Shown piece after piece: positions 1,820 through 32,555 of a stretch of DNA of 32,555 bases. Numbering within the stretch: the stretch's first letter is position 1; the number at the start of each line of letters is the position of its first letter. Both the position numbers and the translations under genes were made by a program. The stretch comes from an uncultured Gammaproteobacteria bacterium (GTDB taxonomy: Bacteria; Patescibacteriota; Microgenomatia; UBA12405), in the NCBI GenBank assembly GCA_964607745.1, contig CAZSLG010000001.1:1-32555 (forward strand), read 5' to 3'. The notes beneath the pieces were generated by a model. That model was not told the origin of the DNA and made no database searches. It saw only the letters and a list, made by a program, of their open reading frames with translations.

Positions 1820-1833
1820 GCCAAATAACAGCA

Positions 1834-1921
1834 AAAGCGAGACGCTTAATTTTTTGCGACTTTTGGACCTCGCGACTGCGAAGAGGCTCCAACGGAGCAA
1901 TAAAATTTAGTGTCTCGCTTT
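1834..1921 (+). repeat. Long-palindrome element, family C, copy C1 (intergenic), MITE-like with about 20-bp terminal inverted repeats
   Basis: The ends AAAGCGAGACGCTTAATTTT and AAAATTTAGTGTCTCGCTTT are reverse complements at 18 of 20 positions. An inverted near-identical copy lies at 17650-17736. Confidence 0.8.
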
Positions 1922-1956
1922 AACTTTTTAAATCTTCTTCATGTTATTATATTAAG

Positions 1957-3095
1957 ATGAATTTAGATAACTACGATTATTTTTTGCCCGAAAAAAACTT
2001 AGCTTTGAGCCCGGCTGTACCTCGTGATTCTTCAAAACTTCTTATTTATAATTCTGTATCCGGAGAAATTATTTTTGATCGTTTTTATAATCTTGATAAG
2101 TATCTTCCCAATAATTCGTTTATGGTGATGAATAACACTAGGGTATTACCGGCCAGGGTTACCCTCCTACGCCAAGGCTTCGGAGGGCAGGCAAAAGGAA
2201 AAGTGGTAATTCTATTTCTAGTAAATGAAATTATTGATAACATTATTCCTGTAATGGTTGATCGTAAAATTAATGTTGGGGAAAAAGTATTTCTCGACTC
2301 AAAAAATTATTTAAAAGTAATTACTCAAAAAGAAAACATCTTTAATTTGGAGTTTAATTTTTCTCGGAACAATTTGTTTGATCTGTTAAGAAAATATGGA
2401 ACAATGCCGATTCCTCCTTATTTAAAAAAATCTCCGCTGAAAAGGGATGAGCTTTTAGAAAAATATCAGACAATTTTTGCCAAGACCGATGGTTCAGCGG
2501 CCGCTCCGACCGCATCGTTGCACTTTACTGACAGCGTTTTTAATAAATTAAAAAAAAAGGAATTGAAAAATATTTCATCACTCTTCACGTAGGGATGGGG
2601 ACATTCGCGCCGATCGATGAAAATAATATTAAACAAAAAAAGCTTCACGAAGAATATTATGAAATTGATAAAGAAACACTTCAATGTATTGATACATTGA
2701 AGAGCCAAGGAAAGAAGTTGGTGGCGGTGGGAACAACGGTTGTTAGAACGATTGAATCAATCGCTCGACAACATGTTTTTTCGTCCGCCACACCCCCACG
2801 GGGGCCCCTGGCGATTCCTCAAAAACAGTTGTCTTCGCTTTTAAAATCAAGGACCCAAAATCTAAAATCTAATATCTATAGCAAAACCGATCTTTTTATT
2901 TTTCCACCATATGATTTCAAATTAGTAGACATTATGATCACTAATTTTCATCTGCCGAAATCATCGCTGATGATGTTGGTTGAGGCGTTTTTACAATTTA
3001 AAGGAGCAAAAAATAGTTTGGTCGAACTGTATGAAATTGCTATTAAAAATAACTTTAGGTTTTATTCGTTTGGAGACGCCATGCTCATTTTATAA
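1957..3095 (+). pseudogene. queA: S-adenosylmethionine:tRNA ribosyltransferase-isomerase (QueA), reading frame broken in an A9 run
   Basis: ORFs 1957-2592 and 2595-3095 together give a QueA-like protein: N-terminal YDYFLPEKNLA..P..PRDSSKLL, then APTASLHFT, then ITLHVGMGTFAPI. The downstream frame is open back to 2547. The two frames join within A9 at 2550-2558, and a -1 shift restores ..NKLKKKGIEKYFITLHVGMGTF.. Confidence 0.85.
2759..2841 (+). repeat. Family A-like palindromic element with a variant core, inside queA
   Basis: Shares the arms GCTCGACAACATGTTTTTT ... AAAAACAGTTGTCTTCGCTTT with A3/A4. The core differs: CGCCA-CACCCCCACGGGGGCCCC-TGGCG. It translates as SSATPPRGPLAIPQKQLSSL. Confidence 0.55.
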
Positions 3096-3325: not shown

Positions 3326-4636
3326 ATGAATAAATTTTTTAAGGTTTTCCATAATTCCAAAAAATCCAAGTCGCGGTTAGGAGAAATTATGACGGATCAT
3401 GGGGCGATCAAGACCCCGGCATTTGTGCCGGCGGCAACGAAGGGAACAATTAAATCTTTATCACCTCAATTAATTAAGGAAATTGGGATACAGGCGGGTT
3501 GTGTTAATACATATCATTTAGTTACTCATCCGGGAGCGAAGATCATCGAAAAGGCCGGAGGAATTCATAAATATTCGCAATTAAATATGCCATTGATGAG
3601 TGACTCAGGGGGGTTTCAGGTATTTTCATTGGCCAGAGATAAGACTCGGCGTGAGTCTTTTTTATCACAGCGGGGACCCCTGCACCCCGAAAGTGAAAAA
3701 AATCCTCCCGCCTCATCTTCAATGGATCAAAGAAAAGCCGATATTCGCGGTGAAGAACAGCCTTTGTTAGTAAAGATTTCCGAAGATGGGGTGAAGTTTC
3801 GGTCGACATTTGATGGGGCATTAATTGAATTTACTCCGGAGAAATCGATGGAATATCAAAGGCAGATCGCGGCGGATATTAATATGGCGTTTGACGAGTG
3901 TACTTATTATCCGGCGACGCATGAGTATGCGGAAAAAGCGATGCAAAGAACCCATGAATGGTTACTTCGTTGTATTAAATATAAAAAAAGCTCGATACCG
4001 AAATTTTTTGACACAGTGGGGACCCCTAACCCCAAAAGTGCAAAAAATTTAGTATCTTCGCTTTCTAAACAATATTTATATGGTGTGATTCAGGGAGCAA
4101 CTTATGAAGATTTGCGTAAAAAATCAGCCGAGTTTGTGGTTTCACAGGGAACACCGGGTGTTGCCATTGGGGGAGTATCGGTCGGGGAGACTAAGAAAGA
4201 GATGAGGGATCAGGTCCGATGGGTGTCCGATTATTTGCCAAAGGATCGGCCGGTTCATTTACTTGGAGTGGGGCAGATAGACGATATAATTGACCTTGTA
4301 AAATACGGGATTGATACTTTTGATTGTGTAGAGCCGACGAGATTGGCGAGAATGGGAACACTATATGAAATTTTCAATAAAAATGAAAAATTCAAAATGA
4401 AAAATGAAAAATCTGGTGAAATCGATATTAACAAATCGATTTATAAGAATGATTTGAATCCAGTTGTAAGCAATTGTCAGTGCTACACTTGTCTCAATTT
4501 CACCAGGTCTTATCTCCATCATTTATTTAAACAACGGGAAATCCTCGGCTACACTCTGGCAACCTTTCATAATTTATGGGTGATGGAGAAATTGTTTGAG
4601 GGGATTCGCGATTTAATAATCAAAGATAAAATATAA
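3326..4636 (+). CDS. tgt: Queuine tRNA-ribosyltransferase carrying three extra in-frame segments
   Basis: Motifs TPAFVPAATKG, NTYHL, SDSGGFQVFSL, FDEC, GVIQG, GGVSVGE, LLGVG, FDCVEPTR and the zinc motif CQCYTC..HHL are present. The protein is longer than classical Tgt at 3641-3719, 3987-4064 and about 4366-4412. Confidence 0.92.
   Translation: MNKFFKVFHNSKKSKSRLGEIMTDHGAIKTPAFVPAATKGTIKSLSPQLIKEIGIQAGCVNTYHLVTHPGAKIIEKAGGIHKYSQLNMPLMSDSGGFQVFSLARDKTRRESFLSQRGPLHPESEKNPPASSSMDQRKADIRGEEQPLLVKISEDGVKFRSTFDGALIEFTPEKSMEYQRQIAADINMAFDECTYYPATHEYAEKAMQRTHEWLLRCIKYKKSSIPKFFDTVGTPNPKSAKNLVSSLSKQYLYGVIQGATYEDLRKKSAEFVVSQGTPGVAIGGVSVGETKKEMRDQVRWVSDYLPKDRPVHLLGVGQIDDIIDLVKYGIDTFDCVEPTRLARMGTLYEIFNKNEKFKMKNEKSGEIDINKSIYKNDLNPVVSNCQCYTCLNFTRSYLHHLFKQREILGYTLATFHNLWVMEKLFEGIRDLIIKDKI
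3641..3719 (+). repeat. Family A element, copy A2, in frame inside tgt
   Basis: Core at 3658-3702 differs from A1 at one base. Translated as ..SFLSQRGPLHPESEKNPP.. Confidence 0.8.
3987..4064 (+). repeat. Family A element, copy A3, in frame inside tgt (78 bp = 26 codons by my boundaries)
   Basis: Arms AAAGCTCGATACCGAAATTTTTT ... AAAAAATTTAGTATCTTCGCTTT flank the core GACACAGTGGGGACCCCTAACCCCAAAAGTGC. Translated as KSSIPKFFDTVGTPNPKSAKNLVSSL. Confidence 0.75.
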
Positions 4637-5901: not shown

Positions 5902-6888
5902 TTAAAATATTTTGTAAGCTTTATTAAAAGTTTTAAAGTCAACTTCGGTTTTTCCTTCAAGTTGAACAGCGTCAATTGTTAAATTGTTAAATTGTTTCAT
6001 TGTTATCTTGGTGATTTTCAGTCTCTTGCCGTTGGGGAGGATAGTCCAAATTCCAGGCCAGGGATAAAGCCCCCGAAAAAGATTAAATAATTTTTCGGGG
6101 GAATTTTCAATTTTCAATTTTAAATTTTCAAAGGAAATAAAGCCGCCGGATTTTTCCAATTTTTTTGTATAAGTTGCCTCCTTATGATTTTGTTCTGTTA
6201 ATTTAAAAATGGGGCCTGTCTCGTGTCTTTTCCCGTCGGTGCTCGCTTCGGACAAAATCCCTCGACTGCGTGCCGTCGGGATCCCTAGACCCTCGACACC
6301 CATTTTTATTATTATCTTAAACATTTCAAAGGCTAAATTAGTTAATTTTGTTTCCAAATCCGGCCTATAATCGGAGCTTTTGATCGTATAAGTTTCTTGT
6401 GCAATAATCGGCCCGTGGTCTATCTCTTCATCCATTTTGATTATGGTGACTCCAGTGGTTTTGTCTCCATTGATTAAAGGAGTGGCGATCGGGGAGGGTC
6501 CGCGATATTTTGGCAGTAAAGATGGATGAATATTCCAAAAACCGTACTTCGGCAAGCTCAATATTTTTTTTGGAATAAGAGCGCCGTAAGCATAAACCAA
6601 AACTAAATCGATGTCTTTGAGCTCGATATATAAATTTTTTATCACAGCGGGAACTCCTAACCCCGAAAGTGAAAAAAATTTAATGTCTTTGCTCATAAGA
6701 TATTTTTTTGCAACTAATTTTACCGGAGTAGGAGTTAGAATTTGTTTTCGACCAACTTTTTGATCGGGTTGGGTCACTACAAGTTTCACTTCAATTAATT
6801 TATTAATTGTAGTATCTGTAATCAGTTTTTCCAGAAAATCGGCAGCAAAGTCGGGAGAACCGAAATAGACAATTTTGAATTTATCCAT
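5902..6888 (-). CDS. fmt: Methionyl-tRNA formyltransferase with in-frame inserted segments
   Basis: Matches to Fmt: KIVYFGSPDFA, VVTQPDQKVGRKQ..TPTPVK, the SLLP motif region WNIHPSLLPKYRGPSPI, GDKTTGVTIIKMDEEIDHGPI, and C-terminal YPWPG. Extra segments lie at 6618-6695 and 6205-6307. Confidence 0.92.
   Translation of the reverse strand: MDKFKIVYFGSPDFAADFLEKLITDTTINKLIEVKLVVTQPDQKVGRKQILTPTPVKLVAKKYLMSKDIKFFSLSGLGVPAVIKNLYIELKDIDLVLVYAYGALIPKKILSLPKYGFWNIHPSLLPKYRGPSPIATPLINGDKTTGVTIIKMDEEIDHGPIIAQETYTIKSSDYRPDLETKLTNLAFEMFKIIIKMGVEGLGIPTARSRGILSEASTDGKRHETGPIFKLTEQNHKEATYTKKLEKSGGFISFENLKLKIENSPEKLFNLFRGLYPWPGIWTILPNGKRLKITKITMKQFNNLTIDAVQLEGKTEVDFKTFNKAYKIF
6205..6307. repeat. GC-rich inserted block with inverted ends (family D), in frame inside fmt
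   Basis: The ends AAAAATGGGG and ACCCATTTTT are reverse complements at 9 of 10 positions. They bracket a GC-rich block in an AT-rich gene. On the gene strand it translates as GVEGLGIPTARSRGILSEASTDGKRHETGPI. Confidence 0.5.
6618..6695 (+). repeat. Family A element, copy A4, inside fmt, plus-oriented although fmt is on the minus strand (78 bp)
   Basis: Arms TGAGCTCGATATATAAATTTTTT ... AAAAAAATTTAATGTCTTTGCTCA flank the core ATCACAGCGGGAACTCCTAACCCCGAAAGTG. Read antisense it gives KFFSLSGLGVPAVIKNLY. Confidence 0.75.
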
Positions 6889-15252: not shown

Positions 15253-16296
15253 ATGACTGAGAATGTAACTATTATTGGTGGTGGGCCGGCAGGACTATCT
15301 GCAGCGATTTATTTAGCCCGGGCCGACCTAAAACCTTTGGTATTTGCCGGATCACCTCCTGGCGGTCAATTAACCCTTACTTCAGAGGTGGAAAATTATC
15401 CGGGATTTGAATCAATTTTAGGTGCTGAACTGATCGAAAAAATGAGAAATCAAGCAAAGAAATTTGGAGCAAGGATAGTAGATGAGAATGTAATTAAAAT
15501 TGATTTTTCAAATAAGTCTAATGGGTCTCATAAGACTTATTTGACTAATAAGACATATAATTCAAAATCGGTCATCATCGCCACGGGCGCCAAAGCTTTA
15601 TGGTTAGGTCTTCCTTCTGAAACCCGATTACGCGGGAAAGGAGTGTCAGCATGTGCAACTTGTGACGGATTTTTTTTCCGTGAAAAAACGGTGGCTGTAA
15701 TTGGCGGAGGCGATACGGCCTTGGAAGAGGCTTTGACCTTGACAAAGTTCGCTAAGAAAGTATATATTATTCACCGACGGGATTTTTTTCGCGCGTCAAA
15801 GATAATGCAGGAACGGGTGGGGGTCGGTCACGCCCGACCCGTACAAAAAAATCCAAAAATTGAAATTATTTGGAATTCGGCAGTTGAGGAGATAATAGGG
15901 GAAAAACATGTTGAAGGAATTAAAATTAAAAACGTAGGGGTCGACCGTGGTCGACCCGAACAAGAAATCAAATTAGATGGCGTTTTCGTCGCGATTGGCC
16001 ACAAACCGGACACGAATTTATTTAAAGATAAGATAGAGCTTGATAGTAAGGGCTATATTTTAAATACAAAATATGTTGGAATTGAAAATTTGAACATTAA
16101 AAATTCAACGAAAATTGAAAATTTAAAATTAAAAATTCCGAAGTTTAATATTAATTACGGATCACAAACTTCGGTCCCCGGGGTTTTTGTTGCCGGTGAT
16201 TGTGCCGACCCATATTATCGCCAGGCAGTGACGGCGGCGGGGACGGGAGTTGAGGCAGCGCTGGAGGTAGAGAGATATTTGGAAAATGTAAAATGA
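15253..16296 (+). CDS. trxB: Thioredoxin-disulfide reductase carrying several in-frame palindromic or AT-rich insertions
   Basis: Matches to TrxB: IIGGGPAGLSAAIYLARA, GGQL..T.EVENYPGF, redox-active CATCDG, the second Rossmann motif VIGGGDTALEEA, HRRD.FRAS, FVAIGH.P.T, GVFVAGD and YRQAVTAAG.G. Extra segments are VGVGHARPVQ, VGVDRGRPEQ and KYVGIENLNIKNSTKIENLKLKIPKFNINYG. Confidence 0.93.
   Translation: MTENVTIIGGGPAGLSAAIYLARADLKPLVFAGSPPGGQLTLTSEVENYPGFESILGAELIEKMRNQAKKFGARIVDENVIKIDFSNKSNGSHKTYLTNKTYNSKSVIIATGAKALWLGLPSETRLRGKGVSACATCDGFFFREKTVAVIGGGDTALEEALTLTKFAKKVYIIHRRDFFRASKIMQERVGVGHARPVQKNPKIEIIWNSAVEEIIGEKHVEGIKIKNVGVDRGRPEQEIKLDGVFVAIGHKPDTNLFKDKIELDSKGYILNTKYVGIENLNIKNSTKIENLKLKIPKFNINYGSQTSVPGVFVAGDCADPYYRQAVTAAGTGVEAALEVERYLENVK
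15508..15544. repeat. Perfect 12-bp inverted repeat (family H) inside trxB
   Basis: TCAAATAAGTCT-N13-AGACTTATTTGA. It is related to the hairpin at 18848-18871 and a half-copy at 15227-15239. Translated as ..SNKSNGSHKTYLT.. Confidence 0.6.
15821..15844 (-). repeat. REP hairpin (GGGTCGG stem) in frame in trxB, with a degenerate head
   Basis: GGGTCGG-TCACGC-CCGACCC-GTAC. It is the same hairpin as 22200-22223 and 27356-27379 except that CTAC is replaced by GTAC. Confidence 0.8.
15934..15957 (+). repeat. REP hairpin, in frame in trxB
   Basis: GTAG-GGGTCGACC-GT-GGTCGACCC. Confidence 0.8.
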
Positions 16297-16297
16297 T

Positions 16298-16372
16298 GTA
16301 GGGGTTTCATTCATGAAACCCAAAAATGGCAAATAAATAACCATCGGTGGGTTTGATAAATCAAACCCCTAC
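16298..16372. repeat. Inverted REP doublet (REPIN-like) 2 nt after the trxB stop, a possible terminator
   Basis: GTAG-GGGTTTCAT-TC-ATGAAACCC (16298-16321) and GGGTTTGAT-AAA-TCAAACCC-CTAC (16349-16372) face each other. The linker contains CATCGGT, which is also seen next to REPs at 19803-19811 and 22050-22058. Confidence 0.75.
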
Positions 16373-16411: not shown

Positions 16412-17638
16412 ATGGATAGTCCAGGAAAGAAGATGCTTGAATCGGCACAAGCACTTATTACTAAAACCGCCGAAAAAATGCAGTTAGACCGCGAGATGAT
16501 CAAGCGCCTCATCGAGCCGGAATTTGCTCATGAATTTGCCCTCACAATTACCATGGATAGTGGCAAAAAAAAGGTCTTTAAGGGTTGGAGAATTCAACAT
16601 AATGGTGCCCTTGGACCTTATAAAGGTGGGATAAGATTTCATTTTGAAACCGTCCGTGAAGAAGTTCAAGCACTGGCAACTTTAATGTCAATTAAATGTG
16701 CCGTAGCCGGTCTTCCGTATGGTGGAGGAAAAGGTGGGATTGTGGTTGACCCAAAAAAACTATCAAAAACAGAATTAGAAAGGCTGTCAAGAGCTTTTGC
16801 CAACAGGATTGCTCATGTAATCGGAGAAGACGTTGATGTCCCGGCTCCCGACGTTAATACAACCCCGGAAATAATGGGCTGGATGCTTGATGAATATCAA
16901 AGAATAATTGGCCACAAAAGTCCGGCCACCTTTACTGGAAAACCAATTGCAATGGGCGGGAGTTTAGGAAGAACTGAGGCGACTGGTCGGGGTGGACTGT
17001 TTGGCCTATTATCTTTACTTGCTAAGATGAAGAAAAAGGCAAAAGGGACAACAGTGGCCGTCCAAGGATTTGGCAATGTTGGTTATTATTTTGCCAAACT
17101 GGCGACCGAGGTTGGTTTTAAAGTGGTGGCAATTTCCGATTCCAGATCAGGAGTTTATGATAAAAACGGAATTGATTTGGACCGCGCTTTAAAGAATAAA
17201 AAGGAAAAAGGAACCGTTTCATACGGTAAAACTATTTCCAATGAAGAATTATTAGAGCTCGATGTTGATGTATTAGTACCGGCTGCTCTTGAAAATATGG
17301 TCAATGAAAAGAATATGGCCAAAATCAAAGCGCCTATCATTGTTGAAATGGCTAATGGCCCATTAACTCAAGAAGCTTACGAATATTTAGCCAAAAAAGG
17401 CAAAGTAATCGTTCCTGATGTTTTTGCCAATTCCGGAGGAGTAATCGTTTCTTACCTTGAATGGGTTCAGGGTAAAGCCGGATTTTGGTGGAGCGAAAAA
17501 GAAGTTAATGATAAGCTGAAAGTTATGATGGAGAGGGCTTTTGAGGCGATCTGGAAAAAGTCTGTTGAAAAAAAGATGCCTTTGAAACAAGCAGCCTTTG
17601 AAGTCGCTCTTGAAAGAATCACATCGGCAATGGTTTGA
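16412..17638 (+). CDS. gdhA: Glutamate dehydrogenase (Glu/Leu/Phe/Val dehydrogenase family)
   Basis: Matches: GPYKGGIRFH, the catalytic-Lys region GLPYGGGKGGIVVDPK, DVPAPDVNT, the Rossmann motif VQGFGNVG, and a VPDV.ANSGGV..SY.EW.Q C-terminal domain. Confidence 0.9.
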   Translation: MDSPGKKMLESAQALITKTAEKMQLDREMIKRLIEPEFAHEFALTITMDSGKKKVFKGWRIQHNGALGPYKGGIRFHFETVREEVQALATLMSIKCAVAGLPYGGGKGGIVVDPKKLSKTELERLSRAFANRIAHVIGEDVDVPAPDVNTTPEIMGWMLDEYQRIIGHKSPATFTGKPIAMGGSLGRTEATGRGGLFGLLSLLAKMKKKAKGTTVAVQGFGNVGYYFAKLATEVGFKVVAISDSRSGVYDKNGIDLDRALKNKKEKGTVSYGKTISNEELLELDVDVLVPAALENMVNEKNMAKIKAPIIVEMANGPLTQEAYEYLAKKGKVIVPDVFANSGGVIVSYLEWVQGKAGFWWSEKEVNDKLKVMMERAFEAIWKKSVEKKMPLKQAAFEVALERITSAMV

Positions 17639-17649
17639 TTACTAATATT

Positions 17650-17736
17650 AAAGCGCGCCACTAAATTTTATTGCTCTGTTGGAGCCGCCTCGCAGTCGCG
17701 AGGTCCAAAGTCGCAAAAAATTAAGCGTCGCGCTTT
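17650..17736 (-). repeat. Family C long-palindrome element, copy C2 (inverted relative to C1), just after the gdh stop
   Basis: Its reverse complement aligns with 1834-1921 along the full length with only a few substitutions, judged by eye. Confidence 0.8.
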
Positions 17737-17751
17737 TGCGTATCTTTCCCA

Positions 17752-18886: not shown

Positions 18887-20917
18887 TTATTTCGCTTCCG
18901 GACTGGCATCTTTTGGCAACTCCAGCTTTGGGTTGATCTGAGCTGCTGGAGGCGTTGGCAGAATTAGATCGCTCTCAGTTTGTTTGTTAGTTTTATTCAC
19001 AGACCCATCTTCTTCCGGAAGCATTTTTTTAAACTCTTCCAATTCTTTCATCACTTTATCATAATCGGCTTTATTTAGTTTCGGGTCGATCAGTTTTATG
19101 GTTGCCTGCAAAGCGTTGACGGCCTGGGGATAATTTTTTTTCTGAAAATTAGCCCAGGCGTAGTTGTAGCTGGCATTAGGCCAATCAGGTTTCAAGGAGA
19201 TCGCCTGTTCAAAAAATCTTAAAGCATCGTCATATTTATTTTGAGAATAGTAGACCCCACCCAAACTGACTCGATATACCGGGTTTTGCGGGTCAGCTAA
19301 AATTGCCCGTTGGTAAGCCGAAATAGTCCAGACATCAGCGCCCTGGGCGGCATTAATGATATTAAGATAGATTTGAGCAAGACCGTTCCAGTTATCCGCT
19401 TTTTGCGGGTTCAAAGAAATGACCGCTTTTGCTTCGGTGATGGACGCCTGAACGGCTTGAGTTATAGTTTGACGGTCCTGTTCGGAAATTTTTTTTGTCT
19501 GGTCTTTTTTGACAATTCCATTGGCGATCAGAAGATTGGTTTGGGCAAAATTACTTCTAAACCTTTCAACGTACGGATTTAAAATAATCGCCTGTCTTTG
19601 GTTGTCATAAACTAGTTTGGCATTGTTTAAAGCTATACCGTCAATTGATTTTTTGAAAAAATATTCAGAAGCATAGGCGCGGCCGAGAAAATAACCGGAT
19701 ACACCGATCAGACCTAGGGAAATAATAATAACACCAAGATAAATAGGCAACAAGTCAGTTAAATCAAAATCTGTAGGGGTTTTGCGCGAAAAACACGTAT
19801 GATCATCGGTCGTAGGGGTTTGATTTATCAAACCCAATATCACAAAAAACAGAAACCAGACGATCAGGGAAGGAGAAAAGACGAAAAAACAAACAATCAA
19901 ATAAATAAATAAAATAAAATGTAGGGGTCGGGCGTGACCGACCCGCAATATTTGTTTGATTGCATAAACAACCAACAAACCAAACGCCAGTAATCCAAAA
20001 ATACCCGTTTCGGTGAAGATTTGCAAAATTGCCGAACGGGAAACATTAAAACTATTGATCTGCCACAATGGGGATTGGTTATACGCAAAGTCTTTTACCC
20101 GGGTAAAAATAGCGGAAAAATTATCCGGACCAATGCCGATTATTGCCGTCTGAGGGTTTTTCAGAATTTCCAGGGCAGCAAACCAGGAAAGCCGGAAGGG
20201 AGGTAATATTGTAGAGACGCCCAAATTGGGCGTCTGTACCGGTTTCATTATCGAATAAACAGTGAATAATAGGGCGGTCAGAGACAAGATAATAGATCCT
20301 AGATGATAAATGATAGACTGTTGGGGAGAGGTCTCTTCGCCTTTTTTCAAAAGATTAACAATAGCAATAATCGTAAAAAATCCCAGTAGAATTGCCAGAT
20401 CTAATTGTGCACCGACTGGGGTAAAACCTGGATTTTTGAGAAAGGCAAGATTTTGTGGAAGAGCAACGTTTTTGAAAGGTTGAAAATAGAAAATTATTGT
20501 GACCAACGATAGAATGATTGACATCAATTGTAGGGGTCGGGCGTGACCGACCCGTATTTCCGATTGAATTCGCGAAATATAAAAATACAAAACCGCCAAC
20601 GAAATCAACATCACCAACCCGAAATTTGGATTTAATAATGCCTGAATCTTGTTGGGTGAAGAAAGCAAAGTTGATACAGCAACAGACGTTAAAAAAAGAA
20701 GGATCAGCTTGTCAAAGGGTCGTTTTTCCCAAGATATTTTTTTGGAAACAATAATCTGGACGGTAGAGATCAAGACGAGCAATAAAACTCCAAAACCCAA
20801 AAGGTATAACTTGTTAGTGACAAAATATTCCTGGGTAAAATTAAGGAAGAAAAATGGAAATAAAAAGACCAAAGAATAAAGGAAAGTAGTCAAAATTTTT
20901 TGAAAAAAATTATTCAT
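18887..20917 (-). CDS. Wzy_C / O-antigen-ligase-like polytopic membrane protein with a C-terminal TPR domain and multiple in-frame REP insertions
   Basis: It has 10 or more TM segments and a loop ending ..FTETGIFGLLAFGLL typical of the family. The C-terminal TPR repeats read AYQRAILADPQNP...ALRFFEQAISLKPDWPNASYNYAW. REP-derived peptides are RVGHARPLQ, RVGHARPLH, VQTPNLGVST and TPTTDDHTCFSRKTPTD. Confidence 0.8.
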   Translation of the reverse strand: MNNFFQKILTTFLYSLVFLFPFFFLNFTQEYFVTNKLYLLGFGVLLLVLISTVQIIVSKKISWEKRPFDKLILLFLTSVAVSTLLSSPNKIQALLNPNFGLVMLISLAVLYFYISRIQSEIRVGHARPLQLMSIILSLVTIIFYFQPFKNVALPQNLAFLKNPGFTPVGAQLDLAILLGFFTIIAIVNLLKKGEETSPQQSIIYHLGSIILSLTALLFTVYSIMKPVQTPNLGVSTILPPFRLSWFAALEILKNPQTAIIGIGPDNFSAIFTRVKDFAYNQSPLWQINSFNVSRSAILQIFTETGIFGLLAFGLLVVYAIKQILRVGHARPLHFILFIYLIVCFFVFSPSLIVWFLFFVILGLINQTPTTDDHTCFSRKTPTDFDLTDLLPIYLGVIIISLGLIGVSGYFLGRAYASEYFFKKSIDGIALNNAKLVYDNQRQAIILNPYVERFRSNFAQTNLLIANGIVKKDQTKKISEQDRQTITQAVQASITEAKAVISLNPQKADNWNGLAQIYLNIINAAQGADVWTISAYQRAILADPQNPVYRVSLGGVYYSQNKYDDALRFFEQAISLKPDWPNASYNYAWANFQKKNYPQAVNALQATIKLIDPKLNKADYDKVMKELEEFKKMLPEEDGSVNKTNKQTESDLILPTPPAAQINPKLELPKDASPEAK
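19773..19835 (+). repeat. Two tandem REP-like units joined by the ATCATCGGTC linker, in frame in the Wzy_C gene
   Basis: GTAGGGGTTTTGCGCGAAAAAC (weak stem), then GATCATCGGTC, then GTAG-GGGTTTGAT-TT-ATCAAACCC. The second stem is nearly the same as at 16349-16368. Confidence 0.7.
19921..19944 (+). repeat. REP hairpin in frame in the Wzy_C gene
   Basis: GTAG-GGGTCGG-GCGTGA-CCGACCC. Confidence 0.85.
20211..20239. repeat. GTAG-headed perfect palindrome in frame in the Wzy_C gene
   Basis: GTAG-AGACGCCCAA-A-TTGGGCGTCT-GTAC. Confidence 0.65.
20530..20553 (+). repeat. REP hairpin in frame in the Wzy_C gene, identical to 19921-19944
   Basis: GTAG-GGGTCGG-GCGTGA-CCGACCC. Confidence 0.85.
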
Positions 20918-20936
20918 ATCTACATAATAATACAGA

Positions 20937-21761
20937 TCAATCTGGGAAACAAGCCTTTACACAAGTAGTGACATCGGTGTAATAAGTTTCACCCGGGTGG
21001 ATCGCTTTACATGCAGCATAATCGCCACAAGCATTACAGTTCGGATTGACAAATAGGGTAGCAAAGGTTGAACAGTTACCAACATAGACAATGGTTGGAT
21101 TCGGGCTGGGAGCAATTCCGGTCGGGGTGGGAGTAGGAGTGGGAGTTGAAGAGATACTTGGAGTGGCGGTAGGAGTTAATGGATTCGGGGTTGAAGTTGG
21201 ATTAGGAACTGACGTAGCCGTTGGATTTGGAGGATTGGTAGTTGGACCAATTCCTTCTTCAAGGATAATATTGGAACTTGAAAGAAAATAATTATAGTTT
21301 ATGTTTCCTGGTGGTCCACAGCCGTTTTGGCAGCCAACCTCAGAGATCACAGGGTCACTGTTATTTGATAGTGAGGTATATGTGATATACCAACCGGGAC
21401 AACTGCTTCCATCAGTTTGGTAAAGATATTTTTTGTTTGGCTGTCTCGGATCACAGGGAAGGCTGGAAAGATAAGGAGAAAATGACGGCGACTGTGGTTC
21501 CGTGCCGCAAATATGACAGGAGTTATTAGAGTCGACCGTGTCATAGCAAATATCTTGGGCTTTTGGATAGCAGTTTTTATCGTTGTACCAATCTTCAAGG
21601 ACTTTTCCTAACGATGATAATTCACTCTTTCTTTTGCTGTCCTGGCTTTTGTTGATCTGTCCGAAGGGATTTAAGGAAACTAAAAGGGCCGTGGCTAAAA
21701 TAACCAGTAGAACGATAACGATCAACAATTCCATCAGGGTGAAACCTCTTTTCATTTTCAT
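20937..21761 (-). CDS. Type IV pilin / pseudopilin with a PT-rich linker and a Cys-rich C-terminal module
   Basis: The class III signal MKMKRGFTLMELLIVIVLLVILA has G before F and E at +5. It is followed by [35 protein letters not shown] and a C-terminal Cys cluster. Confidence 0.88.
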   Translation of the reverse strand: MKMKRGFTLMELLIVIVLLVILATALLVSLNPFGQINKSQDSKRKSELSSLGKVLEDWYNDKNCYPKAQDICYDTVDSNNSCHICGTEPQSPSFSPYLSSLPCDPRQPNKKYLYQTDGSSCPGWYITYTSLSNNSDPVISEVGCQNGCGPPGNINYNYFLSSSNIILEEGIGPTTNPPNPTATSVPNPTSTPNPLTPTATPSISSTPTPTPTPTGIAPSPNPTIVYVGNCSTFATLFVNPNCNACGDYAACKAIHPGETYYTDVTTCVKACFPD

Positions 21762-21776
21762 AATTTTATTTTACAC

Positions 21777-22337
21777 CTATTTTTTATTTGCATTCACCGG
21801 ATTATTTCGATCCCGATCCCACATCAATGGGTTGTTAATAATATATTCACGGATTTTATTTAGATCGGATTCATTATGGATGATGTGTTCGTAATAATTG
21901 CGTTGGAATATTTTTTTGCCAGGTGTATTTCGTAATTTATTAATTTGTTTTGAACATTCCGTTTTAAACATCCCAACGATAAAACCCAACGTGCCTGTAG
22001 GGGCGCGGCGTGACGCGCCCGTATCAAATAATTGTGACGCGCCCGTAATCATCGGTCGTGCGCCCGAAACAATATGTAAAATAAAATGTACGTGATTTGG
22101 CATTATTTGAAATGCATCCAATTCAACCGGATGATGTTTGGGTAATGATTCCCATACATTTTCAATGATTTTTCCGTATTGATTTAAATTCATTGAAACG
22201 GGTCGGTCACGCCCGACCCCTACAACAATATCCCCAAACAAACATTCCCGGTTTTCTGTACAAATTGTGACAAAATACAACCCCGATTTTGAATAATCAT
22301 AATTTTGTAACCTGATTGATTGTCTATTTTTGACCAT
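21777..22337 (-). CDS. REP-associated tyrosine transposase (RAYT; IS200/IS605-type Y1 HUH enzyme), copy 1
   Basis: Matches: RLQNYDYS..GLYFVTICT..R...FG, the HUH motif MPNHVHFILH, the catalytic Tyr region FQRNYYEHIIHNE..L..IREYIINNP..W. It has an ATG start. Confidence 0.88.
   Translation of the reverse strand: MVKNRQSIRLQNYDYSKSGLYFVTICTENRECLFGDIVVGVGRDRPVSMNLNQYGKIIENVWESLPKHHPVELDAFQIMPNHVHFILHIVSGARPMITGASQLFDTGASRRAPTGTLGFIVGMFKTECSKQINKLRNTPGKKIFQRNYYEHIIHNESDLNKIREYIINNPLMWDRDRNNPVNANKK
21997..22047 (+). repeat. REP hairpin inside RAYT copy 1, plus a 24-bp extra segment repeating its 3' half
   Basis: GTAG-GGGCGCG-GCGTGA-CGCGCCC at 21997-22020. GTGACGCGCCCGTA occurs at both 22010-22023 and 22034-22047. 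RAYT copy 2 lacks the extra 24 bp (8 aa, SQLFDTGA). Confidence 0.8.
22200..22223 (-). repeat. REP hairpin inside RAYT copy 1
   Basis: GGGTCGG-TCACGC-CCGACCC-CTAC, read in the gene as VGVGRDRP. Confidence 0.85.
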
Positions 22338-22367
22338 ATTTTTATGGTGTTTACCCCGTAAACTTGT

Positions 22368-25300
22368 TTACGGGGATCCCGTTGCCGGACCGAATCTAAT
22401 TGAACTATTTTCGTTATATAAGGTCTTGATTTGTAACGGGGTCAGGGCGTAATTGAAAACCCGGACATCGTCTATCTGGCCGTTGAAATAGCGGTTAACA
22501 GCTTCTGTATCATTTCCAATTATGAGTGACTGTCCTGATGTTGTTATTCCGCCAGAATAATTAACACTATTTTCCTGTTTTCCATTGACAAACACTTTTG
22601 CAGTTGTGCCGTCATATGTTGCGGTAACAAAAAACCAATCACCAGTTTCTATATTTGTTGTTCCGGTTAGAGTCTGGTATGGAGAACCACCAATGTCAAA
22701 TCTTAAACGACTAGAGTTGTCAATGTTAATTTGATAACCAGTGTTAACAAATTTATCTATTATTCCTGAATAATTGTTTGTTCCTGATGTTTTAATCCAT
22801 GCGGCAACAGTAATGGAATTTGAATTTAGTGCAGAATTATCAGTAATTGAAACATAATCATCCGTTCCGTCGAATTCCAGACTGGAGTTATATTTTCCGG
22901 TTACCCCGTCTTTCCAGGCCTCGCCGGCACTACCCGTACAAGTCCCCGCTGAAGTATTTGTTCCCGTTGCTCCAATTGTGATTGTCCCGCTATTTCCATT
23001 ACCGGATGAGTCGTTAGCAGTATTTCCTTGACACTCATCCATCTTCCAATGTCCCACCGGCCCGCCGCGATTGTAGTCCCAGGCGATTTGAGCCGGCGTT
23101 CGGGCGTAGTTGTAGATACGGACGTGGTCAATAGTGCCTTGAAATTCTTCCCATGCCGAAGCAGAACAACAAGCATTTCCTAAGATATCATTTTGAGCAT
23201 TGGTAATATCAATTATTGTGGACATTGATTGTGTAGTTCCAACATTAATTGATCCGTCAATATATAGAACAGCGTTACCGTCTCGGTCTCCAACCAAGGT
23301 GGCATTATGCCAATTGTTATCTATGTAGGTTGAGGTAGTTGCGCTATTAATGAAATGGCCGCCATTGTCCCTAATATAATATGAAACTTCTCCTGTTCCA
23401 GCAACGAAAAGTCCAATACCAGCCCAATCAATACCTCCATCTCTGCTGTCGAAGATTGTTTGAGTATAACTGGATCCTGTGCTTTTAAACCAAGCTGAAA
23501 TAGTAATGTCTTTATTAGTGCTAAAAGTAGTAGCGGAATTATATGGAACACTAATTAGATCGGACCAATCATTGCCCCCGTCGAAATTAATACCTGAACC
23601 AAATTTTCCTGAACGCCACCTAGGGCTACCAGTAAATGTTCCGGTTAGTCCATTCCCACTCGTATCATACGCGTTCGTGCCGGTTTTTTCGTCAAACTTC
23701 CATTCGCCAACCGGAGCAGAGCAGGAAGTCGTATCTCCTGGAACGCAATATCCACGGGCGGAAGAATTATCCGCTACAGCGCCTGTCGAATCGGTTGACA
23801 CAGAGCCTAAAACCATCGCTGATCCATGATTATAGTCCAATTTTATTTCGTCTGACGTGAGAGCAGAGTTATAAATTTTCACTTCGTCAATTAACCCATT
23901 AAAATAAAATCCGGAAGCATTAAAAGTACCAATAAGAAGATCAATACTGGAAGTTGTCAAAGAAAAAGTACGAGCGGTCGAAAATTTATTAATTCCATCT
24001 AAATATCCTGCCCACGTAGTTCCATCATAACTGTAGATAATCTGATGCCAATTAGTATCGGAAATAGTAATACCCGAACCAGTTCGAGGATTAGAGCCGG
24101 TATAACTACCGGAATAAAATTCAACTTGGTTATCAACATATTCCCAAATAATAGAATAAGAATTATCAGTTCCAGCATCATTTCTTTTGCTAATCAAGTA
24201 GCGATTAGTTTGAGTGAGATCAGAGGGTTTCAACCATAATGAAATGGTAAAACTATTAGTTAAATCAACACTGTTATTATCAGGGATATCTACATAATCA
24301 CCATTACCGTCAAAATTAATTGCTTTGCCAAATTTCCCGTTCATTGACCAGGTGGCATTGGTTTTTGTTCCATCCAATGCGGAACCTACGTTACCGGAAT
24401 TACACACGTCGTTTACTCCGCTGGAGCAGGTGTTGTCCGCGCCTTCGTCAAATTTCCAATATCCAAGTTGCGAACCAACCGGACTTCCACCCACGGGGTG
24501 GCCGGCGTTCATATCCTCGACGATTTGCTTGGAGTTACGGACGTAGTTATAGAGTTTTACTTCATCAAGCTTCCCGGCTAAATAGTTAGTGGAAATTTTT
24601 CCGAAATTAAGGGCGGAAGCATTTAGATTAGTTGCGGTCGTGACAGTTATATATTGCCACTGGTTAGCAGCCAAAGTTAAAGAAACAACACCGTTGACGT
24701 AAATAGTTGGAGAAGTAAATCCGGTCGCAGATAATGTTCCGGAGGTGGCAGAAATATAAGCTGAACCGTTTAAGTCAACAAAATAATTGGTTGTTGAAGT
24801 CGGATACGTCCAAAAGGAAACAGAGTTAACGATCGTTGGACCGGTGCCTTGAGAAATATAATCATCGGTACCGTTAAAATTTCCGGCCGAACCAAATTTA
24901 CCGGTCGTCCAATGGCTTGCACCTGTCCCATTCCAGGTGCCGGTGTATCCGTTGCCACTGATATCATTGATCGACGCACCGGTTTTTTCATCAAAGTTCC
25001 AAGATCCAACCGGACCAGGAGCCCAGTAGTATAGGTCTCGAACTTCTTTTCCGGAAAGGGCACGGTTGTATATACGGGCTTCGTCGATTTTGCCGTTAAA
25101 TTCATATGATGATAAACCAGCCTGTCTTGAACCAAATATTAAAGAGTTATCATTTGTAGAAGGTGTATTTGTAATGGTAGTATCTTTTTCTTTTAGTTCA
25201 CCGTTTTGATATATATACAAAGTATTATTTATATCATCAAAAACTCCAATAATATGAACCCATTGTCCTGTGGGAATAGCGGTTTGAGTATCAACTTCTG

Positions 25301-26885
25301 ATTGAACAGAGTTAGTTCCATAAAAACCGAATCTTACAATAGTACCACCAGAATCGTAAAAGAAACCATAATTCCCCATATTACTAGATTGATCTTTGGC
25401 AACAATGCCAGCGTAAGCAATTTGAGTACCGTTGGAATAAACCCAAGTTGATAAGGTAAAAGATGAAGAAAACTCCCAGGCAGAGTTTTCTGTCACCGAA
25501 GTGTAATCATCAATTCCATCGTAAGTGGTAGAATTTCCAAATTTTCCAGCGGCAGAAGTAGTATTACCATTCCAAGCGCCGTTGCTGGCGTTACCGGAAG
25601 AGTCGCAAGAATCATTAACTCCACCTGTACATGTATTAACAGCTGACTCATCCATCTTCCAATATCCCACTAATCCATCGGAAAAAGATGATAGATTTTT
25701 GATGTTGGATCCTAAACTAGCAGCTGTGCCTTTTACCGATCCAGAGCCTTTTGAAGCAAAGTCAGATTTAATTTGAGCCGCCGAGCGGGCATATTGGTAA
25801 ATTTTAACATCATCAACAAATCCATTAAAACGATAAGCGCTATTATTGGTAATGCCACCTATTCTAAGAGGATTACTTTGTGTGCTATTTCCGGCGGTGC
25901 CAGTCCATGAAGCTTGGGTAACCAGCTGTCCATCTCGATACAATTTTAATCCTGAGGTTTCTACAACAGCAACTAAATGGGTCCAATTATTTGTAGCGGT
26001 GCCAAAAGAGTATCCATAACCACTTGAATATAACTTATTATTTGCATCTACAAAATAATAAAAATAATAACTTCCGCTGGAAGAATCAATATTCCATCCA
26101 TTGCTTGCAGCTGCGGGATATTTACTAACAATTGCCTTCCAGTCTCCTTGATTAATAGTAGTTGACTTGACCCAAGTTTCAATTGTTAAAGGCAAATTTA
26201 CTTGATTAGTTTTATGAGGAATATCGACGTAATCTCCAGCATCAAAATATAGACATTTTCCGGACACGCATTGATCTTCAGATTTCCAAGTAGGGGCCGC
26301 AGTTGATGTTCCAAACACGCCGGTATTAGAATTTTTAGTAGAATCATTTGTGTTCGTCCCATATCCCTCATCAAACTTCCAGTAAGAGATCGGGGCGGCG
26401 CCGTTTTCTTCGGAGGCGGCGGTCGGGCCGGAAGTCGGGGAGAAAGTCGCTTGGGAAAATTGGGCGGAAACTGTGCCATTTTGTACCGATGGATTTCCGT
26501 AATAGTGGTATAAATTTGTGTTTCCGGTATTGATAGTTGGAACTAACACATAATAATCAGTTGAGTTTGTATTGCATGCGCCGCCTTCCGTGTCAATAAA
26601 ATATTGAAGCACACGTCCGTTAATATTTGTGAATCTAGAATCACCGCAGTCGGTCTGCAACTTTCCGGCGGTAATAAGAGTTGCCGTATCAACATCAAAC
26701 TTTACTTTTTTATCACTGTCTGCACTTCCGGTATTGCCGATCGTTAATCCAGTTCGATAAAGCCAGCTATCATTCATCCATGCCGCCTGAACCTTTGACT
26801 GATATTTGGTTACGAGATAAAAAATCGGCAGGGTAATGATCAAAAAAATCACCGAAAAAAGCATTATTTTCCGTTTTAAAACCAT
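22368..26885 (-). CDS. Giant surface protein: N-terminal TM anchor, DUF2341-like domain, then about six LamG / concanavalin-A-like lectin repeats
   Basis: MVLKRKIMLFSVIFLIITLPIFYLV is the TM anchor. WMNDSWLYRTGLTI...DCGDSRFTN.NG..L.Y.ID resembles DUF2341. Each LamG repeat ends [ILV]D[ED][VA][KR][ILV][YF]N.A[LR][ST]..[EQ]I...Y, six times. The track start at 26966 would add 27 aa that include a REP, so I prefer the ATG at 26885. Confidence 0.82.
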   Translation of the reverse strand: MVLKRKIMLFSVIFLIITLPIFYLVTKYQSKVQAAWMNDSWLYRTGLTIGNTGSADSDKKVKFDVDTATLITAGKLQTDCGDSRFTNINGRVLQYFIDTEGGACNTNSTDYYVLVPTINTGNTNLYHYYGNPSVQNGTVSAQFSQATFSPTSGPTAASEENGAAPISYWKFDEGYGTNTNDSTKNSNTGVFGTSTAAPTWKSEDQCVSGKCLYFDAGDYVDIPHKTNQVNLPLTIETWVKSTTINQGDWKAIVSKYPAAASNGWNIDSSSGSYYFYYFVDANNKLYSSGYGYSFGTATNNWTHLVAVVETSGLKLYRDGQLVTQASWTGTAGNSTQSNPLRIGGITNNSAYRFNGFVDDVKIYQYARSAAQIKSDFASKGSGSVKGTAASLGSNIKNLSSFSDGLVGYWKMDESAVNTCTGGVNDSCDSSGNASNGAWNGNTTSAAGKFGNSTTYDGIDDYTSVTENSAWEFSSSFTLSTWVYSNGTQIAYAGIVAKDQSSNMGNYGFFYDSGGTIVRFGFYGTNSVQSEVDTQTAIPTGQWVHIIGVFDDINNTLYIYQNGELKEKDTTITNTPSTNDNSLIFGSRQAGLSSYEFNGKIDEARIYNRALSGKEVRDLYYWAPGPVGSWNFDEKTGASINDISGNGYTGTWNGTGASHWTTGKFGSAGNFNGTDDYISQGTGPTIVNSVSFWTYPTSTTNYFVDLNGSAYISATSGTLSATGFTSPTIYVNGVVSLTLAANQWQYITVTTATNLNASALNFGKISTNYLAGKLDEVKLYNYVRNSKQIVEDMNAGHPVGGSPVGSQLGYWKFDEGADNTCSSGVNDVCNSGNVGSALDGTKTNATWSMNGKFGKAINFDGNGDYVDIPDNNSVDLTNSFTISLWLKPSDLTQTNRYLISKRNDAGTDNSYSIIWEYVDNQVEFYSGSYTGSNPRTGSGITISDTNWHQIIYSYDGTTWAGYLDGINKFSTARTFSLTTSSIDLLIGTFNASGFYFNGLIDEVKIYNSALTSDEIKLDYNHGSAMVLGSVSTDSTGAVADNSSARGYCVPGDTTSCSAPVGEWKFDEKTGTNAYDTSGNGLTGTFTGSPRWRSGKFGSGINFDGGNDWSDLISVPYNSATTFSTNKDITISAWFKSTGSSYTQTIFDSRDGGIDWAGIGLFVAGTGEVSYYIRDNGGHFINSATTSTYIDNNWHNATLVGDRDGNAVLYIDGSINVGTTQSMSTIIDITNAQNDILGNACCSASAWEEFQGTIDHVRIYNYARTPAQIAWDYNRGGPVGHWKMDECQGNTANDSSGNGNSGTITIGATGTNTSAGTCTGSAGEAWKDGVTGKYNSSLEFDGTDDYVSITDNSALNSNSITVAAWIKTSGTNNYSGIIDKFVNTGYQINIDNSSRLRFDIGGSPYQTLTGTTNIETGDWFFVTATYDGTTAKVFVNGKQENSVNYSGGITTSGQSLIIGNDTEAVNRYFNGQIDDVRVFNYALTPLQIKTLYNENSSIRFGPATGSP

Positions 26886-26914
26886 ATTAAAAATATTTAT
26901 TTTTTGATTATCAT

Positions 26915-26938
26915 GGGCGAGTCGCGCCTCGCCCCTAC
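26915..26938 (-). repeat. REP hairpin between RAYT copy 2 and the preferred LamG gene start
   Basis: GGGCGAG-TCGCGC-CTCGCCC-CTAC. Confidence 0.8.
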
Positions 26939-26962
26939 ATTTTATGTATCGATATGTTTTTT

Positions 26963-27493
26963 TCATATTGTATTTTTTGGATTATTTCTATCCCGATCCC
27001 ACATTGTTGGGTTGTTGATAATATATTCACGGATTTTATTTAAATCATTTTCCGTACGAATAATATGTTCGTAATAATTGCGTTGAAATATTTTTTGACC
27101 AGGCGTATTTTGTAATTTATTGATTTGTTTTGTGCATTCCGTTTTGAACATTCCAACGACGAAACCCAACGCGCCTGTAGGGGCGCGGCGTGACGCGCCC
27201 GTAATCATCGGTTGTGCACCCGAAACAATATGTAAAATAAAATGTACGTGATTTGGCATTATTTGAAACGCGTCCAATTCGACCGGATGATGATCGGGTA
27301 ATGATTTCCATATATTTTCAATGATTTTTCCGTATTGATTTAAATTCATTGAAACGGGTCGGTCACGCCCGACCCCTACAACAATATCACCCAATAAACA
27401 TTCCCTGTTTTGGGTACAAATCGTTATAAAATACAATCCCGATTGGGAATAATCATAATTTTTTAATCTGATTGATTGACGGTTTTTATTCAT
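26963..27493 (-). CDS. REP-associated tyrosine transposase (RAYT), copy 2
   Basis: By eye, close to nine-tenths identical to copy 1 at protein level, with the same HUH and Tyr motifs. The ATG at 27493 (MNKNRQSIRL) is preferred over the track's TTG at 27505. Its stop overlaps the track ATG at 26966 in an ATGA arrangement. Confidence 0.88.
   Translation of the reverse strand: MNKNRQSIRLKNYDYSQSGLYFITICTQNRECLLGDIVVGVGRDRPVSMNLNQYGKIIENIWKSLPDHHPVELDAFQIMPNHVHFILHIVSGAQPMITGASRRAPTGALGFVVGMFKTECTKQINKLQNTPGQKIFQRNYYEHIIRTENDLNKIREYIINNPTMWDRDRNNPKNTI
27177..27200 (+). repeat. REP hairpin inside RAYT copy 2
   Basis: GTAG-GGGCGCG-GCGTGA-CGCGCCC. Confidence 0.85.
27356..27379 (-). repeat. REP hairpin inside RAYT copy 2
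   Basis: GGGTCGG-TCACGC-CCGACCC-CTAC. Confidence 0.85.
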
Positions 27494-27494
27494 A

Positions 27495-32555
<5,061 letters not shown>

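Follow-up and report, generated by a model that had tools for sequence, protein, structure and literature searches.

Paired RAYT genes with in-frame GTAG palindromes in a surface-protein gene cluster of a Candidatus Roizmanbacteria contig

The DNA analysed was contig CAZSLG010000001.1 of GenBank assembly GCA_964607745.1, positions 1 to 32,555; this whole stretch is referred to as the window. Best hits placed the host in Candidatus Roizmanbacteria, a lineage of the candidate phyla radiation (CPR), from groundwater metagenomes. Within a minus-strand cluster of genes for very large surface-type proteins, the window carried two genes predicted to encode transposases of the RAYT type (tyrosine transposases that go with repetitive extragenic palindromes, REPs), hereafter RAYT1 and RAYT2. 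The genes of the cluster, in the direction of reading, were as follows.

27495–32555, minus strand: giant protein with collagen repeats and LamG; the frame is still open at the right-hand end of the window
26963–27493, minus strand: RAYT2, 176 amino acids (aa) from the ATG at 27493; open reading frame (ORF) 26963–27505; Pfam Y1_Tnp
22368–26966, minus strand: LamG giant; the long start gives 1532 aa; six Laminin_G_3 stretches (Pfam)
21777–22337, minus strand: RAYT1, 186 aa; ORF list and Pfam Y1_Tnp
20937–21761, minus strand: type IV pilin-like protein that carries a methylation motif at its N-terminus; encoded 15 nt downstream of RAYT1
18887–20917, minus strand: polytopic membrane protein, 676 aa, with a TPR region at the C-terminus

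This order (collagen-like giant, RAYT2, LamG giant, RAYT1, N-methyl pilin, TPR protein) had been given in a preliminary description of the DNA, and both the ORF list and Pfam agreed with it. The label Wzy_C/TPR attached there to the last gene was right for the TPR part; the Wzy_C part found no confirmation, as TPR domains were the only Pfam matches (E ≤ 0.01) in the protein. The junctions around RAYT2 could be read directly as they had been described. At the giant/RAYT2 junction (TAG-T-ATG, 27497–27491), the ATG of RAYT2 lay one base past the TAG stop of the giant gene, while at the RAYT2/LamG junction the sequence ATGA (26966–26963) gave a −4 overlap that requires the long LamG start. With the long start, a REP hairpin at 26915–26938 would be translated. 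One gene call in the related strain L002 puts the LamG start 29 codons later, which leaves an intergenic gap of approximately 84 nt with the REP within it, and this later start is equally plausible.

Two paralogous RAYT genes for Y1 enzymes on the minus strand had been claimed. Both genes are intact, and Pfam bore the claim out: both proteins matched Y1_Tnp (PF01797) with 29.3 bits (RAYT1) and 27.7 bits (RAYT2) against a gathering cut-off of 23. In RAYT1, the HUH motif corresponded to H82-V-H84 (22086–22094) within the peptide PNHVHFIL, located on the strand of residues 82–89 in an AlphaFold2 model (pLDDT 79.5). The equivalent of the catalytic Tyr was Y165 (21843–21845), with N169 four residues on; these two residues aligned to Y115 and N119 of Escherichia coli TnpA_REP (4ER8). 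The columns of H82, H84, Y165, and N169 were invariant in an alignment of 41 homologs. A Foldseek search with the model gave 4er8_A as the top match (E = 3e-7), followed by the IS200, IS608, and ISDra2 transposases; 4ER8, the best PDB match, is TnpA_REP bound to a REP hairpin. As judged from sequence, RAYT1 and RAYT2 are thus predicted RAYT-type (TnpA_REP) Y1 HUH enzymes. The E. coli enzyme, a member of RAYT Group 2, shared the modelled fold and the catalytic Tyr with an Asn at +4, and the E. coli REP/BIME repeats shared the 5′ GTAG at the foot of a GC-rich hairpin. However, sequence identity to E. coli TnpA_REP was only about 21%, and the E. coli gene is single-copy with extragenic REPs at its flanks and none within it; nearly all E. 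coli REPs are extragenic.

In the preliminary description, the REPs of the locus, two of them within each RAYT gene, had been overlooked; by these, the genes could be assigned to a described subclass. The REPs in and beside the two genes were as follows.

22200–22223, minus strand: REP-A in RAYT1, GTAGGGGTCGGGCGTGACCGACCC; sense to the gene; the encoded peptide, VGVGRDRP, forms a beta-hairpin tip in the model
27356–27379, minus strand: REP-A in RAYT2; all 24 nt identical to REP-A of RAYT1
21997–22020, plus strand: REP-B in RAYT1, GTAGGGGCGCGGCGTGACGCGCCC; antisense to the gene; encodes GASRRAPT
27177–27200, plus strand: REP-B in RAYT2; all 24 nt identical to REP-B of RAYT1
22024–22047, minus strand: 24-nt insertion in RAYT1 only; the 3′ half of REP-B duplicated plus a 10-nt AT-rich spacer (TACGGGCGCGTCAC + AATTATTTGA)
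26915–26938, minus strand: REP directly downstream of the RAYT2 stop, GTAGGGGCGAGGCGCGACTCGCCC; intergenic, or, if the LamG ORF is the long one, within its first 18 codons

REP-B corresponded to residues 107–114 of RAYT1 and 99–106 of RAYT2, and in RAYT1 it fell between H84 and Y165. In the model it fell in a loop that leads from the HUH strand to the following helix and is disordered, with pLDDT below 50 at residues 96–114. Columns 160–260 of the homolog alignment were hypervariable, and the positions of REP-A and REP-B coincided with the two hypervariable hot spots, which were filled in the homologs by peptides such as VGATRGSP, VGARRDSP, GGSRPAPT, GLINQTPT, and ATTRVAPT; some of these stood in tandem, and now and then the peptide was missing. 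RAYT1 of strains L007–L010 carried 24 extra nt at REP-A, made up of a second copy of the REP's 3′ half and a 13-nt spacer; this extension, analogous to the RAYT1 insertion at REP-B, was also present in the RAYT of the sister species (L003). A profile scan of genome contigs listed matches of 39–50% identity from other phyla, with no Roizmanbacteria; among the matches listed, which came from many phyla, about 30 of 74 RAYT loci showed an internal REP, and in these the internal REP recurred in the flanks.

According to Quentin et al. 2018 (PMC6006769), in-frame REPs within the gene, generally between the HUH motif and the Tyr, are the unique feature of TnpA_REP subclass 2.4 (Group 4). The same study reports for this subclass an insertion between beta3 and alphaC that varies strongly in both length and sequence, as well as 'double-foot' REPs, and copies of the same subclass within one genome are described as usually distantly related. 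RAYT1 and RAYT2 are assigned, by sequence features shared with it, to subclass 2.4, which equals RAYT Group 4 of Bertels et al. 2017. The shared features were the HUH/Tyr core, a conserved N-terminal motif, no C-terminal extension, nearby GTAG REPs including the 'double-foot' form, in-frame internal REPs, a variable region after the HUH strand, and an occurrence in scattered phyla. Because REPs between HUH and Tyr are a published hallmark of the subclass, the internal REPs found here are not new, and their presentation as a novelty was ruled out. The window locus differed from the published picture in its CPR/Patescibacteria host, a lineage unnamed in those surveys, in a second in-frame REP hot spot before the HUH motif that was nearly universal in the Roizmanbacteria clade, in two similar copies (84% aa identity) only 5 kb apart where same-genome copies are reported as distantly related, and in genes wedged in operons with gaps of 1–2 nt in most cases.

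Over the window as a whole, the motif GTAGGGG occurred 14 times against 2.2 expected, a count reached in none of 100 shuffles. A strict REP scan, which required GT[AGC][GC] and then a perfect hairpin rich in GC, gave 15 strand matches representing 13 elements, compared with 0.33 in shuffles; the elements were confined to the part from 15.8 to 27.4 kb. Twelve canonical REPs were each exactly 24 nt, or 8 codons, in length. The REPs formed several families, the stems of which (for example GGGTCGG/CCGACCC, GGGCGCG/CGCGCCC, GGGCGAG/CTCGCCC, and GGGTTTGA/TCAAACCC) differed by compensatory changes, and all folded as predicted. The remaining REPs and their carrier genes were as follows.

15253–16296, plus strand: thioredoxin reductase gene trxB, with two in-frame REPs
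15821–15844, minus strand, and 15934–15957, plus strand: the trxB REPs, in frame; by comparison with solved TrxB structures they fall in surface loops
16298–16321, plus strand, and 16349–16372, minus strand: intergenic inverted REP pair in a REPIN-like arrangement
19773–19800 (degenerate), 19812–19835, 19921–19944, 20211–20239 (double-foot), and 20530–20553, plus strand: five in-frame REPs in the TPR gene

Hence 10–11 of the 13 window REPs were intragenic, and in four related Roizmanbacteria loci 26 of 27 strict REPs lay within called genes. No canonical REP was detected by the strict scan in the LamG interior or in the collagen giant. Regarding the question whether REPs occur at the borders of the LamG cassette, one was indeed present at the RAYT2/LamG border (26915–26938), while the interiors of LamG and the giant were free of them. 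L003 and L005 had, at the site orthologous to this REP, one whose stem differed. Within the TPR gene, the REP at 20530 was part of an exact 28-nt match (20528–20555) to the RAYT-internal REP-A, and in L002, a 99%-identical strain, a REP of another type took its place. Orthologous sites of the sister species carried other stems, and two of the REPs were missing there. Intragenic GTAG REPs in other genes have been documented (Di Nocera et al. 2013, PMC3733652); these and the Rickettsia palindromic elements shared with the present REPs the form of in-frame short palindromes in loops of housekeeping genes, sometimes two per gene. The published REPs were intragenic in 'a variable number' per species, whereas in the Roizmanbacteria loci the intragenic ones were the majority and had a uniform length of 24 nt. 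GTAG REPs were also seen within the ribosomal protein L1 gene of three Roizmanbacteria genomes (L091 at 2218; L094 at 1940 and 2126; L096 at 1819), and in comEA and a gene with a metallo-beta-lactamase domain. A perfect 10-bp hairpin of another kind, CCCCGTAAAC-AA-GTTTACGGGG, spanned the LamG stop just upstream of RAYT1 (22349–22370), with no GTAG tag and no T-run. A search of Rfam gave no match anywhere in the window.

The premise that RAYTs are stand-alone genes did not hold in this group, as the RAYTs of Roizmanbacteria routinely lay between same-strand genes, with gaps of 1–2 nt in most. In five other Roizmanbacteria lineages (L091–L097, L104–L106), a RAYT was located downstream of comEA, between the Competence-domain and metallo-beta-lactamase-domain ORFs of comEC, which was apparently split; the gaps were 1–2 nt in four of the five lineages, and the RAYTs were 53–76% identical to RAYT2. 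Tight embedding in same-strand operons is the rule in Roizmanbacteria and not an oddity of the window locus. ComEC is the channel through which single-stranded DNA (ssDNA) is imported, and the recurrence of a RAYT between the halves of its gene could stem from a functional connection of the RAYT with such imported ssDNA.

The two copies were compared to reconstruct their history. The identity of 'close to 90 percent' estimated previously was slightly too high for the proteins, which were 84% identical (154/183), and covered the DNA in part, with 86–91% over two ungapped blocks; overall, the genes were approximately 13% divergent in DNA and differed by two indels. They formed direct repeats 5.2 kb apart, and the longest tracts without a difference reached about 80 nt. 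In the pairwise alignment, similarity extended from ATG to stop codon, the flanks were unrelated, and no terminal hairpins or inverted repeats outside the genes were common to both copies. The dN/dS ratio was 0.18 for the paralog pair and 0.13 for orthologs; the former value indicates that both copies are under purifying selection. Synonymous divergence (dS) was 0.39 between the paralogs and 0.22 between RAYT2 and its sister-species ortholog, and a neighbour-joining tree grouped (RAYT2, P0001) as sister to (RAYT1, P0003). The higher paralog dS together with this grouping implies that the duplication is older than the split of the window species and the sister species. Paralog-specific substitutions were depleted between REP-A and REP-B (4 of 203 sites compared to 40 of 328 elsewhere), and a comparison with lineage-specific sites, which were not depleted, gave a Fisher p of 0.025, moderate evidence from one test. 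The depletion suggests gene conversion, and so the copies may interact by recombination; the HUH core would be the converted tract, bounded by the two internal REPs.

The structural variability of the locus among related genomes that had been anticipated was confirmed, as L002 was without RAYT2 and L003–L006 were without RAYT1. The sample of the window species consisted of about eight contigs, from which rare events could escape. L001, from a different assembly and another sample, had the identical arrangement. L002 kept LamG and RAYT1 and missed a segment of approximately 605 nt (26885–27489, minus strand) holding the RAYT2 coding sequence (CDS), the downstream REP, and an AT-rich tail. The sister species (L003–L006) kept the order giant, RAYT, LamG, and a bAvd/23S_rRNA_IVP gene was found in the RAYT1 slot; a third species (L103) kept the giant–RAYT junction. 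All pilin contigs with enough upstream sequence had RAYT1 upstream, and LamG was retained in every contig covering it. L007, assembled independently from another sample, possessed both RAYT copies. This contig (2.7x coverage) was 99.6% identical to the window from 27725, and its upstream part (1–1403) held a DNA-methyltransferase-like fragment and a PEGA gene with no collagen giant; the departure at 27725 may be either a real rearrangement or an assembly chimera.

The LamG giant itself, aligned with L003 (5758–10365), was a mosaic in which blocks of 95–100% identity alternated with three LamG domains of about 30% identity. The exchanged domains corresponded to residues ~240–393, 850–1040, and 1380–1532. 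This pattern indicates that LamG diversifies between the sister species by replacement of whole domains, in a gene whose window copy is without a REP. Small genes for 23S_rRNA_IVP/bAvd four-helix bundles were observed in variable slots (L003, 10448–10828; L096, 8703–9110; L104, 2091–2462), namely in the RAYT1 slot behind LamG in the sister species and between comEA and comEC in others. In L096, PDDEXK_3 and GIY-YIG genes lay directly upstream of a LamG giant. These bAvd/PDDEXK slots seem to collect small, possibly selfish genes. A reading of the bAvd-like gene in L003 as part of a diversity-generating retroelement was dropped, with no reverse transcriptase nearby.

Overall, we consider it likely that RAYT1 and RAYT2 are vertically maintained subclass 2.4 paralogs and that the bracketing of LamG is a by-product of the two insertion-tolerant slots that they occupy and not a composite element. 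Several observations weigh against this interpretation. The placement in subclass 2.4 was made by shared features and not with the authors' own profiles; both proteins scored under the equivalog cut-off of 80 for NCBIfam NF047646 (REP_Tyr_transpos), with 65 and 64.5 bits; and RAYT1 had a His at the equivalent of the GTAG-contacting R104, which is usually Arg. The internal REPs of the sister species retained GGGTCGG and GGGCGCG as their stems, and the external ones mostly had different stems, a mismatch that makes the 'one RAYT, one cognate REP' picture incomplete. Promoter and terminator scans of the locus performed no better than shuffles. Finally, 78 nt of unrelated sequence took the place of RAYT2 in L002, for which deletion, replacement, or mobility are possible origins; these 78 nt had no match among the related contigs compared.

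It is unlikely, in our assessment, that the RAYTs are autonomous IS200-like selfish elements, that is, single-gene cassettes inserting in operons whose recent transposition explains the presence and absence of RAYT1 and RAYT2. Each copy was indeed independently present or absent among close relatives, and RAYTs occupied at least three different slots in Roizmanbacteria. Yet the RAYT2 slot was kept in L103, where the neighbouring giant protein was only 57% identical, and the comEC slot was kept across RAYTs that had diverged to 53–76% identity with RAYT2; this conservation of both slots indicates vertical inheritance. The occupation of the RAYT1 slot in the sister species by a small, probably mobile bAvd/23S_rRNA_IVP gene, and the similarity of RAYT1 to RAYT2, which exceeds that usual for same-subclass copies within one genome (PMC6006769), would suit mobile cassettes. 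However, the paralogs were 13% divergent in DNA and under purifying selection, and L002 held a replacement sequence at the RAYT2 position and not a clean empty site. The Y1 HUH fold is common to IS200/IS605 elements, but the window genes were accompanied neither by tnpB nor by subterminal hairpins (left-end or right-end) outside the gene, and a comparison of the junction sequences between slots revealed no conserved target site or element end.

The preliminary description had raised the idea of a composite element, in which the LamG cassette would be deleted, amplified, or varied, either through recombination between the RAYTs or by the action of the Y1 enzymes. The resemblance to a composite transposon lies in the transposase genes placed as direct repeats around a cargo gene, and the identical tracts and the gene-conversion signal leave room for recombination between the copies. 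Nevertheless, similarity was confined to the CDS with a dS of 0.39 and no terminal hairpins outside the genes, and the slots were conserved between species. The variants seen had lost one RAYT at a time and kept LamG. No contig with LamG deleted or duplicated was found among those encoding RAYT1, P0001, P0003, or the pilin (about eight of the window species), and a scan of JGI metagenomes with a 52-mer common to both copies returned parental arrangements only (two matches, both from the sister species). The LamG mosaic between species and the single REP at the RAYT2/LamG border would suit a varying cassette, but neither LamG nor the giant contained REPs inside. A composite element is therefore very improbable here. 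An assembly artefact, through a wrongly resolved repeat or a chimeric join, can hardly be credited, for although L007 leaves the window upstream of 27725 and may be chimeric, the copies are set apart by two indels and by differences at some 13% of bases and so are no collapsed or duplicated repeat, the separate assembly L001 matched at 99.98% across both copies, and both copies were present in L007 as well.

With RAYT1 and RAYT2 taken as vertically maintained subclass 2.4 paralogs, the following mechanism may be proposed. Each RAYT would encode an HUH/Tyr single-strand DNA nuclease which, by homology to E. coli TnpA_REP, may bind GTAG REP hairpins on ssDNA, cut, and rejoin them; such cleavage and rejoining would maintain and spread local REP families. 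In the model, REP-A would sit before the HUH motif at a beta-hairpin tip and REP-B in the variable loop after the HUH strand. Owing to the little intergenic space available, 24-nt REPs would persist mostly as in-frame inserts in tolerant loops, as in trxB, the TPR protein, and the RAYTs. Neither a promoter nor a Shine-Dalgarno sequence was evident for the RAYT genes themselves, which lay 1–30 nt behind same-strand genes; expression is thus probably low, by read-through and termination-reinitiation. RAYT2 would represent the occupant of an old, conserved slot behind the collagen-like giant and RAYT1 an older duplicate in a variable slot behind LamG. Among these steps, we infer co-transcription, translational coupling, and the direction of REP copying.

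A broader proposal combines several ideas: that REPs are mainly intragenic 8-codon modules in Roizmanbacteria and possibly also in other CPR bacteria, that the RAYT-internal REPs are lasting master copies from which new in-frame insertions in neighbouring genes arise, that gene conversion is bounded by REPs, and that comEC connects the RAYTs with ssDNA. As a joint claim this is rather doubtful. The master-copy idea derives from the exact 28-nt match of 20528–20555 to REP-A and the REP swap at 20530 in L002.

Further repeats were noted in the left part of the window. A second family consisted of an imperfect hairpin of approximately 66 nt with compensatory outer-stem changes (1745–1815, 3645–3715, 3991–4060, and 6622–6690). 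Two copies were in frame in a tRNA-guanine transglycosylase gene (3326–4636), one was in frame in a methionyl-tRNA formyltransferase gene (5902–6888, minus strand), and one was intergenic; in its arrangement the family is reminiscent of the Rickettsia palindromic elements. Intergenic DNA also held an element of about 100 nt twice, in inverted orientation (1831–1934, plus strand; 17637–17739, minus strand) with about 90% identity, no Rfam match, and paired changes in the outer stem (GAGAC/GTCTC vs GCGAC/GCGCG). The queA gene (Queuosine_synth) was split into ORFs 1957–2592 and 2595–3095, covering profile positions 2–183 and 193–322, which could result from a stop codon or an inserted element. 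In trxB, a third insertion (16060–16135) of about 22 residues consisted of AT-rich tandem repeats (AATTGAAAATTT...) and was missing from solved TrxB structures.

The attractive idea of a Y1 composite element driving surface-antigen variation is left unsupported by this analysis. The placement of RAYT1 and RAYT2 would extend the range of subclass 2.4 to the candidate phyla radiation, with modest additions to the published picture in the form of the CPR host, the mostly intragenic 24-nt REPs, the hot spot before the HUH motif, and a turnover of both REPs and RAYTs from strain to strain. In this compact genome, 'extragenic' palindromes are found mostly within genes as in-frame 8-codon units. For the annotation of CPR genomes, this means that odd loops such as VGVGRDRP and GASRRAPT are encoded by repeats. 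The presence and absence of RAYTs between strains, together with REP replacement at a single site, may serve as natural material for studying how REPs and RAYTs turn over.

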